Part shown: in pieces, positions 8,054 to 37,889 of the stretch
How the letters are laid out: every line of letters begins with the position of its first letter
Numbering within the stretch: the first letter of the stretch is position 1
Assembly: GCA_965203905.1 (NCBI GenBank)
Contig: CBDBDQ010000005.1
Coordinates: 5,952,001-6,016,000 of the forward strand
Length of the DNA stretch: 64,000 bases
Origin: Spirochaetia bacterium
Lineage (GTDB): Bacteria > Spirochaetota > Spirochaetia > SZUA-6 > Bin103
Direction: 5' to 3'
Position numbers and translations under genes: made by a program
Notes under the pieces: model-generated
The model's input: the letters and a program-made list of their open reading frames with translations, nothing else
What the model was told of the DNA's origin: nothing
The model's database searches: none

Positions 8054-8231
8054 TGCTGTTCTTCCTGGCGTGGTCCGAGCCGGTGCGGCGGACGGTCACC
8101 GTCGCCGCCGCCAATCCCGGCCCTGCCTCTGTATTCGTATTGACGCAGGCCGGAGAGCACGTCGGCTCGGGCCCACATTTCGAATGTAGTGGACACCACA
8201 AACCGAAATCAACAGCGGCGGCCACCCGCGG

Positions 8232-10286
8232 CCGGACCATCCCACGCTGCGCGACAAGCCGGCTGCAGTTCGTTACTCCCGTTGCCCTCGGACCGCCACC
8301 CCGACGGCCCAACTCGCACCCTGGCAAGCGCCGATCACGTAGCCCCGTCTGGCGTCGGTCGGTACTCCCGATGCCGGAAGCGGTTATGCGCAGCGCAATA
8401 TACACGGAGATTCTCCGGCTCCGCGCTGCCGCCGAGCGCGAAGGGAACGATATGGTCGAGCTCCAGCAGGAAGCGGGACCCGCAACGCCGCCCGCTGTGC
8501 GGATCGACGTAACTGCAGCAGCCGCCGTCGCGGCGCCACACCTCGCGCCGCACTGGTGCCGGAATGTACCGGGATCGGGGCGCCCGGTGGGGCGGCTGCG
8601 CGCTGCCTGCGGACGGGCCGGCTGCCGCCGCCTGCGGCCGCGAACGGCCATCGAGCTGCGCCGCCCCTGCCCGCTTCGCTGGCGAAGGAGCGTGGCGGCC
8701 GCAATCCGCCGCTGCCGGCGCGGTCGGCATGCTTTGGTCCGCCGGCGGCGTCGGTACGGTGGCGTGGGCCCCACAACCAGCCACCAACTGCGCCGCCGAA
8801 GGAGCGGTGCCGGGCGCCGCCACCGCTGGCTTGCCACGCACCGGGGTGATGCTGCCGCCAGTCTCGCGCCCCGACGGCGGCGCGGACAGCACTGCCACCG
8901 CCGAGGTGCCGGCGTGGCCAATCCCGCGCGCGGGTTCCTCTGCGGACAGCGCTGCCGGCGCCGGGGTGTTGCCGCCGGCGCTCGTGCCTTCCGGCGGCGT
9001 CGGAACTCCGGGTTGCTCTTGCGCGCCCCGCTTCGCCGGCGAAGTCGCTCCGCCTGCCGGCCCTTGCTGCGGCTTCGGCTCCGGCGCCTGGCCCGCGCTT
9101 GCCTCCCGGCTCCCGCCTCTGCGACCGCGCGGCGGTCGCCCCGGGTCGTAGCGCTGCAGGCCGTCCTGCACCAGCCGCTCCACCAGTTGCCCCAGCGTCA
9201 GGTGCGGGTCGACGTGCGACAGCAGTGCCCGTAGCTGCTCGATCCCGCGCTGACAGGCAGAGTCGATCTCCACTTTCAGCTCCCAGCGGTCCTCGCCCAG
9301 CGCCCTTATGCGATCAGCAGGGCGCGCCAGCTCGGGAGCCACCCCGGCCAACAACTGCTTCACCTCGCGGGTGCTCTTGCCGCTCGCCTGCGCCACCAGC
9401 TCCTGCCGCTGCGCCGCGTCCAGCGCCGGCACCGGTCGCGCTGGCGTCGCTGCCCCGGCCCCCAAAGCCCCCGCCTCCGGCGCCGTCCCCGTGCCGCCCG
9501 GCAGCAGCTCCGGGGCCGCGGGTGCGGAGCCGGAGTCCACGGCGGTGGTGGCTGTGCGCTGCAGGAGATCGAAGGTGTTCTGCAACTGCGCCGCCGCGCT
9601 CAGGGAGAGCGAGCCGTCCTGCAGCCGCTCGCGTGTCCCGGCGGTCTCGGAGCACAGGTGCATAGCCTTTATGCGGCGCCACGCGGCGCCTTCGCTGTAG
9701 CCCAGCTCGCGGACGGCGTAGTCGAACAGGCTGGAGAACCCGAGGCGCAGGTGCAGGTGGCGGGCGTGGATCTCGCGCAGGTGGTCGAGGACGGCGAGCT
9801 GCAGCGCCTGCTCATGCAGGACGAGGGACCTGGTGTGCGCCAGCAGCACCTGGTCGGGGAGCCCGGAGAGCGAGGAGGAGAAGCCGGTAGGGATCGCGGC
9901 AGCCATGGCGTAAATATAATCATGGCTGATAAATGACCGGTTTCTGCAAGTCCCGGGACGGGCACCTGGAAGGGCTCAGGCCGGCGCTGGCGGGGTGCTG
10001 GCGGGCCTGGAGGGCGCGGGGGGATGCTCGAAGGGGCGGAGGGGCCGGAACGTGCGGCAGGGGGCCGTCATGAGCAGCGCCAAACCCGTCAAGTGCTCAG
10101 CGCATATTTTTCGCACAAATCCTGTAGCGCGTGCGCCGACGTGGCCGCAACGCATCGGCGGACCGGATGGCGGCAACCGCTTATTCCTGGACACACCGTA
10201 CAGCGAACGAAACCACGCACCTGAAAGCGGCGATCAGGCAGGTCGCCACACGGGATGCAGACATCGTTCAACAGAGGATGGTCCTG
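8232..10286 (-). mobile_element. Putative HNH-encoding mobile element, copy 1
   Basis: Homologous end to end with 35787-37889; imperfect terminal IRs (CCGGACCATCC / GGATGGTCCTG); flanking direct repeat CACCCGCGGC at 8223-8232 and 10287-10296. Confidence 0.75.
8335..9906 (-). CDS. HNH endonuclease with helical N-terminal domain (DUF222-like architecture)
   Basis: C-terminal RYIPAPVRREVWRRDGGCC..RCG..LELDHIVPFALGG..NLRVYCAAHN; N-terminal LGFSSLFDYAVRELGYSEGAAWRRI; long Pro/Ala linker. Confidence 0.88.
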   Translation of the reverse strand: MAAAIPTGFSSSLSGLPDQVLLAHTRSLVLHEQALQLAVLDHLREIHARHLHLRLGFSSLFDYAVRELGYSEGAAWRRIKAMHLCSETAGTRERLQDGSLSLSAAAQLQNTFDLLQRTATTAVDSGSAPAAPELLPGGTGTAPEAGALGAGAATPARPVPALDAAQRQELVAQASGKSTREVKQLLAGVAPELARPADRIRALGEDRWELKVEIDSACQRGIEQLRALLSHVDPHLTLGQLVERLVQDGLQRYDPGRPPRGRRGGSREASAGQAPEPKPQQGPAGGATSPAKRGAQEQPGVPTPPEGTSAGGNTPAPAALSAEEPARGIGHAGTSAVAVLSAPPSGRETGGSITPVRGKPAVAAPGTAPSAAQLVAGCGAHATVPTPPADQSMPTAPAAADCGRHAPSPAKRAGAAQLDGRSRPQAAAAGPSAGSAQPPHRAPRSRYIPAPVRREVWRRDGGCCSYVDPHSGRRCGSRFLLELDHIVPFALGGSAEPENLRVYCAAHNRFRHREYRPTPDGAT

Positions 10287-10354
10287 CACCCGCGGCGCGC
10301 CAGTCCCTGTGATGCCCGGTGGACGCCGTGCCCCCAGCCATGCTTGTGTGAGGC

Positions 10355-11374: not shown

Positions 11375-12594
11375 TGACGCGCGAGTTCCATGAATTGATC
11401 GAGCGCGCTAATGAGTTGCATAAGAGACACCGCGTCGGGGAACATGAAGACGGCTTTAACGTCTTTTCGGTACTTCTTAACGAAACCGACGAAGTGAATC
11501 TCCATTCTAAGTTCATTGCAGCATTGTTACAGCACAATCCTTATACAACAGCCGGGAACCTTGATGAATTCTTACGTCAAGTACTTGGAATCAACGGTTT
11601 TGACCGCACGCGCGCGACTATTCGGAGAGAGTACCTCGATATCGATATTCTAATAAGTAACGTAGCCAGCAGACAAGCAATCGTTATCGAAAACAAGATC
11701 CTCGCTGAAGATCAGCAAGAGCAATTGATTCGATACCACCAAGCATTAAAATCACAGGGATTCTCCGAAATATATCTTGTATATCTTACTCTCGACGGGC
11801 GAGCACCATCGAGCCAAAGTGTTGGTGACCTAACGTGTAAACGAATCTCCTACAAGGATGACATTTTGCCTTGGTTGAAGTACTGCCAACAACGCGCTCA
11901 GAATATACCATCGCTGCGTGAAACGATAGCTCAATATATACGAACCGTCAAGGTATTAGCCGGTACGAACAGAGAGGGAGTTTATATGCATGACTTGAGT
12001 GAATTGTGTCTTCAGGATGACAACCTTCTTCTCGTCCATGATTTGAACCAGGCGGCGAAGCAGGCACGAATTCGATTGCTTCGCTGTCTTTGGGTGGAAA
12101 TAGAGGATGCCCTGCACCGTGCGATACCTGGAATCTCTAAGGGATCATGGACGGTCGTAATGCAGGGAAACCCAGTTGCTACTGGGGAACCAACAGATGG
12201 CCCAGATCTTGTACGATTCCTAGACAAACAAGGAGCGGAGTTGGTCCTTAGGTTTCCGTTATCGGAAGTCTTTGGCGCAGGAATTGGTGCCGATAAGGCG
12301 GGGACGACGTACTTCGGAGTGTACTGCCATCAAAATCATCAAGAACAGCACGAACGCCTTCGGTTAACATTCGGTTCCGTCAACAATAAGGATTCTAGTT
12401 ATCGTTGGCCTTGGTATCAGTATAGCGAAGAAAATCTAAGTCAGAAATACCCAACAAGGGAACAACTCATGATGCTATTGAGGCGCGACGAACGGTCTCG
12501 CCATGCAAATGAGATAGCGACAATCTTCAAAGACCTCGTTTGGGACAGACTCCCGACTGCCGAACAAATAAATCCGTTAATCGAGGACTTATGA
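11374..12594 (+). CDS. PD-(D/E)XK nuclease family protein (PDDEXK_4-like)
   Basis: EVNLHSKFIAALL, REYLDIDILI, IVIENKI.A.DQ.EQL.RY, VYLTLDG; visibly AT-richer than flanks. Confidence 0.8.
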   Translation: MTREFHELIERANELHKRHRVGEHEDGFNVFSVLLNETDEVNLHSKFIAALLQHNPYTTAGNLDEFLRQVLGINGFDRTRATIRREYLDIDILISNVASRQAIVIENKILAEDQQEQLIRYHQALKSQGFSEIYLVYLTLDGRAPSSQSVGDLTCKRISYKDDILPWLKYCQQRAQNIPSLRETIAQYIRTVKVLAGTNREGVYMHDLSELCLQDDNLLLVHDLNQAAKQARIRLLRCLWVEIEDALHRAIPGISKGSWTVVMQGNPVATGEPTDGPDLVRFLDKQGAELVLRFPLSEVFGAGIGADKAGTTYFGVYCHQNHQEQHERLRLTFGSVNNKDSSYRWPWYQYSEENLSQKYPTREQLMMLLRRDERSRHANEIATIFKDLVWDRLPTAEQINPLIEDL

Positions 12595-35698: not shown

Positions 35699-35786
35699 TC
35701 CGGAGTTGTGCGCGTTACTGCCCCGCCGGGCGTGGTACTGCTGCCAAGTCGGCCGCGACGAATGGCGGCGTGGCCCTCACCGGACT

Positions 35787-37889
35787 CAGCACTATCCCAC
35801 GCTACGCGACAAGCCGGCTGCAAGTCGTTGCTCCCGTTGCATTCGGACCGACACTCGACCGCCCAACTCGCGCCCCGGCGAGCGCCGATCACGTGGCCCC
35901 GTCTGGCGACGATCCGTCCTCCCGATGCCGGAAGCGGTGGTGAGCAGAACAACGAAGCCTGAGATTATCCGGCTCAGCACCGCCGCCGAGGGCGAAGGGA
36001 ACGATGTGGTCGAGCTCCAGCAGGAAGCGGGATCCGCAGCGCCGTCCGCTGTGCGGATCGACGTAACTGCAGCAGCCGCCGTCGCGGCGCCACACCTCGC
36101 GCCGCACCGGTGCCGGAATGTAGCGGGATCGGCGCGCCCGTTGGGGCGGCTGCGCGCTGCCTCCGGACGGGCCGGCTGCCGCCGGCTGCGGCCGCGAACG
36201 GCCCTCGCGCTGCGCCGCCCCTGCGCGCTTCGCTGGCGAAGGAGCGCTGCGACCACGATCCGCCGCTGCCCGCGCAGTCGGCAAGCTCCGGTCCGCCGGA
36301 GGCGTCGGTACGGAGGCGCGGGACCCGCAACCAGCCACCAACTTCGACGCCGAAGTAGTGGTGCCGGGCGCCGCCGCCGCTGGCTTGGCACGCACCGGGG
36401 TGCTGCCGTCGCAAGTCTCGCGCCCCGACGGCGGCGCGGGCAGCGCTGCCACCGCCGAGGTGCCGACGCCGCCAATCCCGCGCGCCGGTTCCGCTACGGA
36501 CAACGCTGCCGGCGTCGTGGTGCTGCCACCGGCGCTCGTGCCCTCCGGCGTCGGTGGCACTCCGGGTTGCTCTTGCGCGCCCCGCTTCGCCGGCGAAGTC
36601 GCCCCGCCCGCCGGCCCTTCCTGCGCCTGCGGCTCCGGCGCCTGGCCCGCGCTTGCCTCCCGGCGCCCACCCCCGCGCCCGCGCGGCGGTCGCCCCGGGT
36701 CGTAGCGCTGCAGGCCGTCCTGCACCAGCCGCTCCACCAGTTGCCCCAGCGTCAGGTGCGGGTCCACGTGCGACAGCAGTGCCCGTAGCTGCTCGATCCC
36801 GCACTGACACGCAGAGTCGATCACCACCTTCAGCTCCCAGTGGCCCTCGCCCAGCGCCCGCATGAGATCAGCAGGGCGCGCCAGCTCGGGAGCCACCCCG
36901 GCCAGCAACTGCTTCACCTCGCGGGTGCTCTTGCCGCTCGCCTGCGCCACCAGCTCCTGCCGCTGCGCCGCGTCCAGCGCCGGCACCGGTCGCGCCGGTG
37001 CCGCTGCCCCGGCCCCCGAAGCCCCAGGCCCCGGCGCCGTCCCCGTGCCGCCCGGCAGCAGCTCGGGTGCCGCGGGTGCCGCGCCGGGGTCCGCGGCGGT
37101 GGTCGCCGTGCGCTGCAGGAGATCGAAGGTGTTCTGCAACTGCGCCGCCGCGCTCAGGGAGAGCGAGCCGTCCTGCAGCCGCTCGCGTGTCCCGGCGGTC
37201 TCGGAGCACAGGCGCATGGCCTTTATCCGGCGCCAGGCGGCGCCTTCGCTGTAGCCCAGCTCGCGCACCGCGTAGTCGAACAGGCTGGAGAACCCGAGGC
37301 GCAGGTGAAGGTGGCGGGCGTAGATCTCGCGCAGGTGGTCGAGGACGGCGAGCTGCAGCGCCTGCTCGTGCAGGACGAGGGACCTGGTATGCACCAGCAG
37401 CACCTGGTCGGGGAGCCCGGAGAGCGAGGAGCAGAAGCCGGTAGCGGTCGCGGAAGCCATGGCGTAAATATAATCATGGCTGAGAAATGACCGGTTTCGG
37501 CGAGTCCCGGACCGGCCCCGGGACGGGCTCAGGCCGGCGCTTGTGGGGTGCTGACGGGCCTGGAGGGCGTGGCGGGATGTTCGAAGGGTCGGAGGGGCCG
37601 GAACGTGCGGCAGGAGGCCGTTATGAGCAGCGCCAAACCCGTCAAGTGCTCAGCGCACTTTTTTGGCATTTTTCTGCAGAATGGCGGCGCCGACCTGCAC
37701 CTGCCCCGCAACGCAGCGGCGGAGACCTGCGCGTTGCGGGTGGCGGCTCCCCTTCTTATTCTGGACACGTTGTACAGCGAACGAACCACACAACCAGAAG
37801 GCGGCGATCTGGCAGGCGCCGCGCCGGGGCCATCACCGCAGCTCGCCCACACACGGGATGCAGACGTCGTTCAGCATGGGATGGCCCTG
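35787..37889 (-). mobile_element. Putative HNH-encoding mobile element, copy 2
   Basis: Ends CAGCACTATCCCA / TGGGATGGCCCTG (imperfect IR); flanking direct repeat CACCGGACTC (35778-35787) / CACAGGACTC (37890-37899). Confidence 0.75.
35889..37460 (-). CDS. HNH endonuclease with helical N-terminal domain (paralog of 8335-9906)
   Basis: Same 523-aa length; near-identical N-terminal and HNH domains, diverged linker. Confidence 0.88.
   Translation of the reverse strand: MASATATGFCSSLSGLPDQVLLVHTRSLVLHEQALQLAVLDHLREIYARHLHLRLGFSSLFDYAVRELGYSEGAAWRRIKAMRLCSETAGTRERLQDGSLSLSAAAQLQNTFDLLQRTATTAADPGAAPAAPELLPGGTGTAPGPGASGAGAAAPARPVPALDAAQRQELVAQASGKSTREVKQLLAGVAPELARPADLMRALGEGHWELKVVIDSACQCGIEQLRALLSHVDPHLTLGQLVERLVQDGLQRYDPGRPPRGRGGGRREASAGQAPEPQAQEGPAGGATSPAKRGAQEQPGVPPTPEGTSAGGSTTTPAALSVAEPARGIGGVGTSAVAALPAPPSGRETCDGSTPVRAKPAAAAPGTTTSASKLVAGCGSRASVPTPPADRSLPTARAAADRGRSAPSPAKRAGAAQREGRSRPQPAAAGPSGGSAQPPQRARRSRYIPAPVRREVWRRDGGCCSYVDPHSGRRCGSRFLLELDHIVPFALGGGAEPDNLRLRCSAHHRFRHREDGSSPDGAT

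Follow-up and report, generated by a model that had tools for sequence, protein, structure and literature searches.

A probable non-autonomous ISAs1-family insertion sequence with an HNH nuclease cargo gene in a Spirochaetia genome

Structure of the element

The window is a 64,000-nucleotide stretch of the genome of a Spirochaetia bacterium, a genome very rich in repeats. It contains two copies of one element (copy 1, 8232-10286; copy 2, 35787-37889), already noticed in a reading of the sequence only. Both alignment and blastn reproduce them as homologous copies with shared breakpoints: they align from end to end (2107 bp at 88.3% identity, blastn), and similarity breaks off at identical bases on both sides. 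Terminal inverted repeats delimit each copy, short direct repeats flank it, and the interior holds no gene besides an open reading frame (ORF) of 523 codons. The features are as follows (minus, plus: strand).

8223-8231: left 9-bp target-site duplication of copy 1, CACCCGCGG
8232-8255, plus: left terminal inverted repeat of copy 1, family consensus CAGGACTATCCCACGCTrCGCGAC
8335-9906, minus: cargo ORF of copy 1, 523 aa, with two helical domains, disordered linkers and an HNH domain
8362-8541, minus: HNH (beta-beta-alpha-Me) nuclease domain, aa 456-515 (Pfam PF01844; PDB HNH matches)
9142-9429, minus: middle folded domain, about aa 160-255 (pLDDT mostly 84-97)
9532-9876, minus: N-terminal helical domain, about aa 11-125 (pLDDT 88-98)
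9907-10095, minus: ~188 bp preceding the ORF, a stretch also conserved in the sister subfamily fam2
10263-10286, minus: right terminal inverted repeat of copy 1, family consensus, read inward, CAGGGCCATCCCATGCTGAACGAC
10287-10295: right 9-bp duplication of copy 1, CACCCGCGG, identical to the left one at 9/9 positions
35778-35786: left duplication of copy 2, CACCGGACT
35787-37889, plus: element copy 2, 2103 bp long; its inverted repeats lie at 35787-35810 and 37866-37889
35889-37460, minus: HNH cargo ORF of copy 2, 523 aa
37890-37898: right duplication of copy 2, CACAGGACT, 8/9 against the left one

Read inward, the ends are CCGGACCATCCCACGCTGCGCGAC and CAGGACCATCCTCTGTTGAACGAT in copy 1, and CAGCACTATCCCACGCTACGCGAC and CAGGGCCATCCCATGCTGAACGAC in copy 2. 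The duplication had first been given as 9 or 10 bp long; the shorter value stands and the longer is discarded, the tenth base being the first base of the element, since the 9-bp duplication usually lies directly against CAGG...CCTG.

Genome-wide family and evidence of insertion

The 8-Mb genome harbors 33 near-full-length elements of about 2.05 kb, the window pair included. All exceed 1850 bp, with 83-90% identity to copy 1, and are accompanied by 27 pieces of 200-1850 bp. Conservation falls steeply at the same two alignment columns in all copies, and the family ends form 24-bp imperfect inverted repeats. Comparison of the flanking 9-mers gives a 9/9 match in 8 of the 33 copies, 8/9 in 5, and 7/9 in 3, against 0.2%, 0.7%, and 4.3%, respectively, among 1056 mismatched left/right pairings used as a control. 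Duplications matching at 8/9 or better are, therefore, present in 13/33 copies versus 0.9% of the control pairings, and the copy-specific direct repeats anticipated from the window pair are confirmed elsewhere in the family. The CAC-N6-C target consensus proposed along with them is not confirmed: a CAC start occurs in only two of these 13 copies, both of them the window copies.

The locus of copy 1 has an empty counterpart in a genome of the same genus (G003), where AACCCACGG occurs once, as had been predicted for an unoccupied site. The same comparison for copy 2 yielded no clean empty site, as three congeners keep the left flank while the right flank is rearranged.

The repeats could also be segmental duplications or assembly artefacts rather than mobile DNA, a reading for which nothing speaks besides the repeat-rich nature of the genome. 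The 33 dispersed copies with sharp common ends, the copy-specific 9-bp duplications far above control, the empty site in G003, and the nesting of other elements within copies make it extremely improbable. A homing endonuclease gene resident at one recognition site was also considered and rejected, given 33 copies at different sites, with different duplications and shared inverted repeats.

At one composite locus (C5:5072023-5075160), a copy shortened to 247 bp by internal deletion is followed by 776 bp of other DNA and then by a full copy, the whole being flanked by a 9/9 duplication, TTGATGTGA. Any left end combined with any right end can, thus, be mobilised, as expected of an enzyme that recognises ends.

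Between copies, identity reaches 96.9% at most, with a median of 89%, whereas active elements of the same genome show 99-100% between copies. Judged by this divergence, the HNH element family is old, which fits the loss of a helper. Other elements are nested inside some of the family copies. In the genome G011, the HNH copies have ends that are not sharp, and 5 out of 8 adjoin hsdS-like sequence.

Terminal repeats and autonomous relatives

The ISAs1 family is described as having inverted repeats of 14-22 bp that start with CAGGG and a direct repeat of about 10 bp (PMC11946415; PMC6305408, row ISArsp11), the length given for ISArsp11 being 1306 bp (PMC6305408). The ends of the window family, CAGGnCnATCCCAYGCT, together with its 9-bp duplication, constitute an ISAs1-family signature. 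The right end, CAGGGCCATCCCATGCTGAACGAC, and the left end, CAGGACTATCCCACGCT..., agree with the ISAs1 inverted repeats (start CAGGG/CAGGA), and 9 bp falls within the 8-10 bp expected for the duplication. What differs is the transposase: the HNH protein is the sole ORF, and the ISAs1 transposase gene (NF033564; PF13808 and PF01609) is absent. Being without a transposase gene, the element counts as a non-autonomous derivative of the ISAs1 family rather than an autonomous member.

Autonomous DDE elements with matching terminal repeats, which the sequence-only reading had suggested looking for, were found in close relatives. Genes matching the NCBIfam ISAs1 model (NF033564) occur in 18 of the 92 genomes of the order, and forms of 600-606 aa flanked by the window end motif were found in G010, G001, and G004 (same genus) and in G033 and G035 (same family), against 0-1 matches per genome for a reversed-pattern control. 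These relatives, which share the 17-nt end motif, are unusual for ISAs1 elements, with a length of about 2.1 kb and a transposase of 603-606 aa with an N-terminal DruA-like domain. The G010 element (L045:1149-3278; 2130 bp) has CAGGAAAATCCCATGCT and CAAGGCGATCCCATGCT as its ends, and its 9-bp duplication, GCGTGCCAT, is perfect; its 603-aa ORF matches both DDE_Tnp_1_assoc and DDE_Tnp_1 and scores 150.7 bits against NF033564, where the cut-off is 70. In G035, the left end of the element is identical to the right-end consensus of the window family over the first 19 nt of that consensus. In G004, an autonomous element (L049) and a transposase-less one of 2230 bp (L047), the latter with a perfect 9-bp duplication, AGGGGTAGC, have about 38 nt in common at one end. 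The autonomous elements retrieved have only the first ~19-24 nt in common with the window element.

No intact ISAs1-like transposase gene was found in the window's own genome, only gene fragments. Likewise, scans of this genome for a DDE partner with the same ends (allowing up to 3/19 and up to 2/15 mismatches, so that a helper with more diverged ends would be missed) returned only the HNH family, the 247-bp derivative, Rpn-type elements, and chance-like matches. A tblastx comparison of the non-coding ends with the genome gave E-values that were inflated by linked matches and uninformative.

The HNH protein and its gene module

The architecture described from the sequence only, a single 523-aa ORF with a helical N-terminal part, a linker, and a C-terminal HNH domain, agrees with the domain analysis. 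PF01844 scores of 21.5 and 22.7 bits (cut-off 21.4) place the protein among HNH proteins; the HNH domain is predicted with pLDDT above 90, and C464, C475, H485, N499, and C504 are nearly invariant among 60 relatives. The protein family is large (15,586 clusters at 50% identity, E<=0.001). The middle domain has no Pfam or PDB match, and for the N-terminal domains neither sequence searches of the PDB nor Foldseek found a relative, Foldseek giving only ParB/SopB-like matches of low probability.

In 31/33 copies, the 1.6-kb ORF has no interruption between the N-terminal and HNH motifs. The dN/dS values, 0.17 for the HNH domain, 0.19 for the N-terminal domain, and 0.23 for the middle domain (aa 166-262), show purifying selection on the ORF; they derive from 23 of the 33 copies, the 10 omitted being those in which the longest open frame is an alternative frame in G+C-rich DNA. 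By its conservation, the ~188-bp upstream stretch belongs to the HNH gene module. Upstream of the ORF, no structured RNA was found with a meaningful Rfam match (one at E 0.39), and RNAalifold on 42 sequences of the window family and fam2 detected no conserved fold (z of -0.55 sense and -1.16 antisense, against column shuffles).

Other nuclease cargoes and a second frame

The sister HNH subfamily fam2, located outside the window, has different ends (GGGTGCATTC...) and 9-bp duplications, and carries a remnant of the C-terminus of an ISKra4-family transposase beside the HNH module. Both of its end motifs are identical to those of an autonomous 1534-bp ISKra4-family element present in 10 copies in G004 (transposase NF033572, 230 bits versus a cut-off of 205), and a single full-length ISKra4-family gene lies in the window's genome at C5:2122510-2123913. 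Fam2, thus, sits in the frame of an ISKra4-family element. The only part common to the two different IS frames is the HNH module, that is, the ORF plus 188 bp upstream. In a congener, the ISAs1-type frame also holds a true DUF222-HNH gene (in G004) or Rpn-like nuclease genes, which brings to three the unrelated nuclease genes found in this type of frame within the genus.

These observations bear on the proposal, made from the sequence only, of a new element class mobilised by the HNH protein itself. In such an element, the N-terminal domains would bind the inverted repeats, and the HNH domain would cut the donor ends and make the 9-bp staggered cut in the target. The HNH gene is indeed the element's sole gene, purifying selection is seen in almost all copies, and this genome yielded no DDE partner with matching ends. 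However, in close relatives these terminal repeats and this length of duplication are those of DDE elements from a described family, the homologous HNH gene of fam2 lies between quite different, ISKra4-family ends, and identical ISAs1-type ends carry the unrelated Rpn-like and DUF222-HNH genes. The fold search recognises the HNH domain alone and no known transposase fold, and the literature searched contains neither a description of an HNH-driven transposon nor the phrase 'HNH transposase'. Such a class is, therefore, very improbable here and falls to the refuting condition named with the proposal itself, the occurrence of its terminal repeats in a known IS with a DDE transposase. The other reading offered at the outset, a non-autonomous IS carrying a nuclease, is the one that the ISAs1-type ends and the autonomous DDE relatives favor.

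Comparison with known systems

Transposase-less copies of ISC and IS200/IS605 elements that retain only TnpB or IscB resemble the window family, with many copies and a single conserved nuclease gene, and their mobility depends on a transposase encoded elsewhere (PMC4810608; 10.1101/2023.03.14.532601). Nevertheless, the IS200/IS605 type moves by HUH 'peel-and-paste', whereas the window family has a DDE-type carrier, bounded by inverted repeats and flanked by duplications. Unlike IscB of the OMEGA systems, the window protein has no RuvC (NF040563, 17.8 bits versus a cut-off of 175, over the HNH part only), and no structured RNA that could correspond to a guide was found beside its gene.

DUF222-HNH genes (the mycobacterial REP13E12 / 13E12 repeats) are likewise multicopy and encode helical N-terminal domains followed by a C-terminal HNH domain. 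The link to them drawn from the sequence only holds for this architecture but not for family membership, which was rejected: PF02720 (DUF222) has no match in the window protein at E<0.01, and in an hhalign comparison with a true DUF222-HNH protein the alignment is confined to the HNH domain. A relative of the window protein, P0225, reaches 17.6 bits against DUF222, under the cut-off of 24.4, and language-model features alone suggested DUF222-like clusters (0.94). Where REP13E12 appears in PMC10589994, it is named as a repeat category only.

Miniature inverted-repeat elements (MITEs) and non-autonomous IS with passengers share with the window family the ends of a known IS, target duplications, and the absence of a transposase, and the 247-bp deleted derivative fits the same picture. 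The difference lies in the passenger, which is open in nearly all copies here and under purifying selection; passengers of decaying non-autonomous copies are ordinarily not expected to stay intact. In KolobokP, a homing endonuclease of the His-Me/HNH type also rides in a DDE transposon with inverted repeats (PMC9587614), although that element is eukaryotic and encodes its DDD/E transposase itself, while the window nuclease stands alone.

Origin and persistence of the cargo

The window element is most probably a non-autonomous ISAs1-family IS, in which the HNH gene, as cargo, replaces the DDE transposase gene. It would have kept the ISAs1 inverted repeats, with the HNH gene and its own ~188 bp of upstream sequence taking the place of the transposase gene. 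An ISAs1-family DDE transposase supplied in trans would bind the CAGGnCnATCCCAYGCT ends and insert the copies, and repair of the 9-bp staggered target cut would produce the duplication. The intact transposase gene would later have been lost from this genome, so that the family is probably immobile in it today. The HNH protein is a passenger, a predicted DNA-binding nuclease, and not the transposase.

Several points weigh against this explanation. In a non-autonomous element that is dead, a cargo gene would be expected to decay, yet the ORF is open in 31/33 copies, with dN/dS of 0.17-0.23 in the folded domains, and, as this genome has no intact ISAs1-like transposase, trans-mobilisation is not visible at work in it. 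The similarity to the autonomous relatives is limited to the terminal ~19-24 nt, and the end scans tolerated no more than 2-3 mismatches, so that a more divergent helper would have escaped them. Hitch-hiking alone is not a sufficient explanation for the selection on the window-type HNH gene. Possibly, though with less than even confidence, the protein aids the persistence or copying of its carrier, through nicks or breaks that provoke recombinational repair.

On a different account, the HNH module would not have travelled with the ends; it would have invaded resident ISAs1-type and ISKra4-type elements where they lay, through gene conversion triggered by the nuclease. The transposase gene would have been replaced and the autonomous element finally extinguished, the duplications dating from the original DDE insertions. 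This would suit an HNH module that is all the two IS frames have in common, the ISKra4-family transposase remnant adjoining it in fam2, the 33 HNH copies versus mere fragments of the ISAs1-like gene in this genome, and the three unrelated nuclease genes in one frame within the genus. Still, the ~19-24 nt (up to ~38 nt in G004) common with autonomous elements offer very little homology for conversion, the composite with its 9/9 duplication shows that an HNH-bearing copy moved as a unit, and none of the loci read has transposase and HNH genes together in one copy. Gene conversion is, thus, an improbable origin when set beside the insertion of a cargo-bearing, non-autonomous ISAs1-family IS.

Significance

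A tempting false lead is removed by this analysis: an HNH gene between inverted repeats and duplications is not a new transposase class here, since its ends are those of a DDE element of the ISAs1 family. In this genus, a nuclease is the only gene of transposase-less frames from two IS families.

On a broader and rather unlikely reading, DDE insertion sequences would repeatedly have had their transposase replaced, under selection, by nuclease genes acting as hyperparasites or retention modules; the window-type HNH, DUF222-HNH, and Rpn-like PD-(D/E)XK genes would be the instances seen here. If true, the nuclease would cut element-related or emptied DNA and bias repair toward copying its own carrier, as a possible protein-only counterpart, by analogy, to the role of TnpB/IscB for IS200/IS605. 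No biological role has been settled for the related multicopy families, DUF222-HNH and Rpn-like, and this reading, if correct, would account for the multicopy DUF222-HNH (REP13E12) and Rpn/'Transposase_31' genes in many bacteria. Should the same arrangement hold elsewhere, it would provide a testable reason for the copy numbers of the DUF222-HNH and Rpn-like genes.

The element and its ends

The repeated element of the window is a non-autonomous insertion sequence (IS) of the ISAs1 type, whose sole, well-kept gene encodes an HNH nuclease; the HNH protein is not its transposase. The window spans C5:5952001-6016000 in a genome of 7.99 Mb (66% G+C, 5 contigs). In this genome, blastn with copy 1 (8232-10286) returned 33 copies longer than 1850 bp, with 83-90% identity to copy 1 and including the window pair, 27 further pieces of 200-1850 bp, and a second, more distant group, fam2, which matches part of the ORF at about 71% identity. 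As the sequence-only reading had it, copies 1 and 2 (35787-37889) are homologous from end to end, with similarity breaking off at the same point on either side. Each carries a single long ORF.

HNH ORFs of the window copies
8335-9906, minus strand: copy 1, 523 aa
35889-37460, minus strand: copy 2, 523 aa

When the 33 copies and their flanks are aligned with MAFFT, column conservation rises from ~0.4-0.6 to ~0.85-0.99 at two sharp columns. The consensus ends, read inward, are CAGGACTATCCCACGCTrCGCGAC and CAGGGCCATCCCATGCTGAACGAC, and form a 24-bp imperfect inverted repeat, so that the imperfect terminal repeats proposed for the window pair hold for the family consensus. Over the 528 pairs that the 33 copies form, identity is 0.892 at the median and reaches 0.969 at most; for active elements of this genome, copies agree at 99-100%.

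Scanning this genome for the end motif recovered the HNH family, two other elements on contig C5, and chance-like matches, with no DDE gene between such ends.

Other elements from the end-motif scan
C5:5072023-5072269: 247-bp internally deleted derivative
C5:5515052-5516341 (L020:1053-2342): 1.29-kb element with related ends

In one composite of this genome, bounded by a 9/9 duplication (TTGATGTGA), the 247-bp derivative is followed by 776 bp of other DNA and then a full copy; any two ends are therefore substrates for the machinery.

Several other repeats were observed. Near the ORF start, two HNH-element copies are interrupted by an IS66-like element of 2591 bp (C5:7577416-7580006 and C5:4668269-4670860), which has ends GTAAGTATTCGGTCTAC, an 8-bp duplication and six copies at 100% identity. 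Several HNH-element copies, some whole and some broken, cluster with ISKra4-type ends and an Rpn-like gene in 18 kb at C5:1232000-1250000 (L025), which looks like a mobile-element graveyard. Two more repeat families are dispersed in the genome, one of ~1.85 kb (72-94% identity; C5:6669900-6671800 and about 25 other places) and one of ~170 bp (82-95%; C5:6027454-6027625 and about 15 other places). Within the window, 11380-12594 (plus strand), after the aldo-keto reductase gene, has a visibly different composition, its ORF beginning MTREFHELIERANELHK.

Target duplications and an empty site

For each of the 33 copies, the 12 nt outside each end were compared, with 1056 mismatched left/right pairs as the control.

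Matches between flanking 9-mers
9/9: 8/33 copies; control 0.2%
8/9: 5/33 copies; control 0.7%
7/9: 3/33 copies; control 4.3%

Several copies without matching 9-mers have a truncated or misaligned end. Typically, a 9-bp repeat directly abuts CAGG...CCTG; the proposed duplication is thus real, its length in the usual geometry being 9 bp rather than 10 bp. Copy 1 has CACCCGCGG on both sides, and copy 2 has CACCGGACT on one side and CACAGGACT on the other. The suggested CAC-N6-C target consensus does not extend to the family, as only two of 13 good duplications, both those of the window copies, start with CAC. An empty site exists for copy 1 in a same-genus genome (G003), where its flanks (89% and 92% identical) adjoin each other, with a single AACCCACGG at the junction versus two CACCCGCGG in the window. 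No clean empty site was found for copy 2.

ISAs1-family transposases in relatives

The ends and the 9-bp duplication resemble those of the ISAs1 family, and two papers bear out this signature: one gives the family inverted repeats of 14-22 bp, a CAGGG start and a 10-bp direct repeat (PMC11946415), and the other tabulates ISArsp11, whose IRL is CAGGGCTGATGCAAAGTCG and whose repeat is 10 bp (PMC6305408). ISAs1-type genes occur in 18 of the 92 genomes of the order. The window's genome has none above the cut-off, only fragments at C5:4758228-4758625 and 4213322-4213405. In three same-genus genomes (G010, G001, G004) and two of the same family (G033, G035), the window's end motif brackets ISAs1 forms of 600-606 aa, which are the autonomous DDE elements with the same terminal repeats that had been sought. 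The G010 element (2130 bp, perfect 9-bp duplication) encodes a DDE transposase of the ISAs1 family that is extended at the N-terminus by a DruA-like domain (L045:1405-3216); in G035, the element's left end is identical to the initial 19 nt of the right end in the window family, and the autonomous G004 element, L049, has an 8-9-bp duplication.

Of the two mechanisms first envisaged, mobilisation by the HNH protein itself is rejected, since the ends and the 9-bp duplication belong to ISAs1-family DDE elements of relatives; a non-autonomous IS carrying a nuclease is the reading that stands, the same end motif bracketing DDE elements there. Neither a transposon driven by an HNH protein nor the present arrangement was found described in the literature searched.

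The DruA-like N-terminal domain (PF14236, E 6e-21) is found on ISAs1-like transposases of the genus. The window's genome also has separate DruA-like ORFs (C5:5620438-5620995 and C5:28915-29484), located within an ISKra4-like element with 5 copies and an IS66-like one with 6.

The HNH protein

Between the N-terminal and HNH motifs the frame runs uninterrupted in 31 of the 33 copies and is broken in two; the ORF is kept by selection in 31/33 old copies.

dN/dS (23 usable copies of 33)
aa 1-125: 0.19
aa 166-262: 0.23
aa 456-515 (HNH): 0.17
two linkers: 1.0-1.1

An AlphaFold2 model (60 sequences) has pLDDT >90 at about aa 11-120, 160-255 and 445-515, and low-confidence linkers. HNH is the sole Pfam match (21.5 and 22.7 bits, cut-off 21.4), and a weak NCBIfam IscB match (17.8 vs 175) covers the HNH part only; PDB sequence and fold matches are likewise confined to this domain. 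A language-model search gave a high-scoring DUF222-like lead. Pfam did not place the window protein in DUF222, and hhalign against a true DUF222-HNH protein aligned the HNH domain alone. The protein family has 1054 matches among 8000 scored candidates; clustered at 50% identity, it numbers 15,586 clusters at E<=0.001 and 768 at E<=1e-30, many members being 300-350 aa without long linkers. No structured RNA was found beside the HNH gene.

In another genus of the family (G011, L026-L033), the unit with the HNH gene spans just ~1.3 kb and lacks sharp inverted repeats; 5 of 8 copies adjoin the same sequence, GCGATCTTGATCACCGGT, which in L026 belongs to an hsdS-like reading frame.

A second frame and other nuclease cargo

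The sister subfamily fam2 (~2.2 kb, about 10 copies or part-copies seen) has nothing in common with the window family but the ORF and some 188 bp upstream of it. Its ends differ (GGGTGCATTC...CTGTGG), and its duplications are likewise 9 bp; at its start lies a 225-bp miniature element, and at its end the remains of a transposase C-terminus. Its autonomous match, 1534 bp long and present in 10 copies in G004, has identical end motifs and a perfect 9-bp duplication, and encodes an ISKra4-family transposase (230 bits, cut-off 205). One full-length ISKra4-family gene lies between fam2-type ends in the window's genome (C5:2122510-2123913). With the window family in an ISAs1 frame and fam2 in an ISKra4 frame, one HNH module therefore rides two DDE IS families.

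Three kinds of nuclease gene recur in such frames. In G004, L047 (2230 bp, no transposase, perfect 9-bp duplication) carries a true DUF222+HNH gene (PF02720, E 7e-18) and has about 38 nt at one end in common with L049; other frames with the same ends, L048 and L050, hold Rpn-like genes. The 1.29-kb element has an Rpn/YhgA-like gene (PF04754, E 1e-15), ends matching the two HNH-element ends at 19/24 and 20/24 (manual count), and flanking 9-mers matching at 6/9.

Such Rpn/YhgA-like 'Transposase_31' genes are the sole gene between ISAs1-type inverted repeats in L020, C5:3261700-3262970, L048 and L050, a setting that may explain the family's putative-transposase label.
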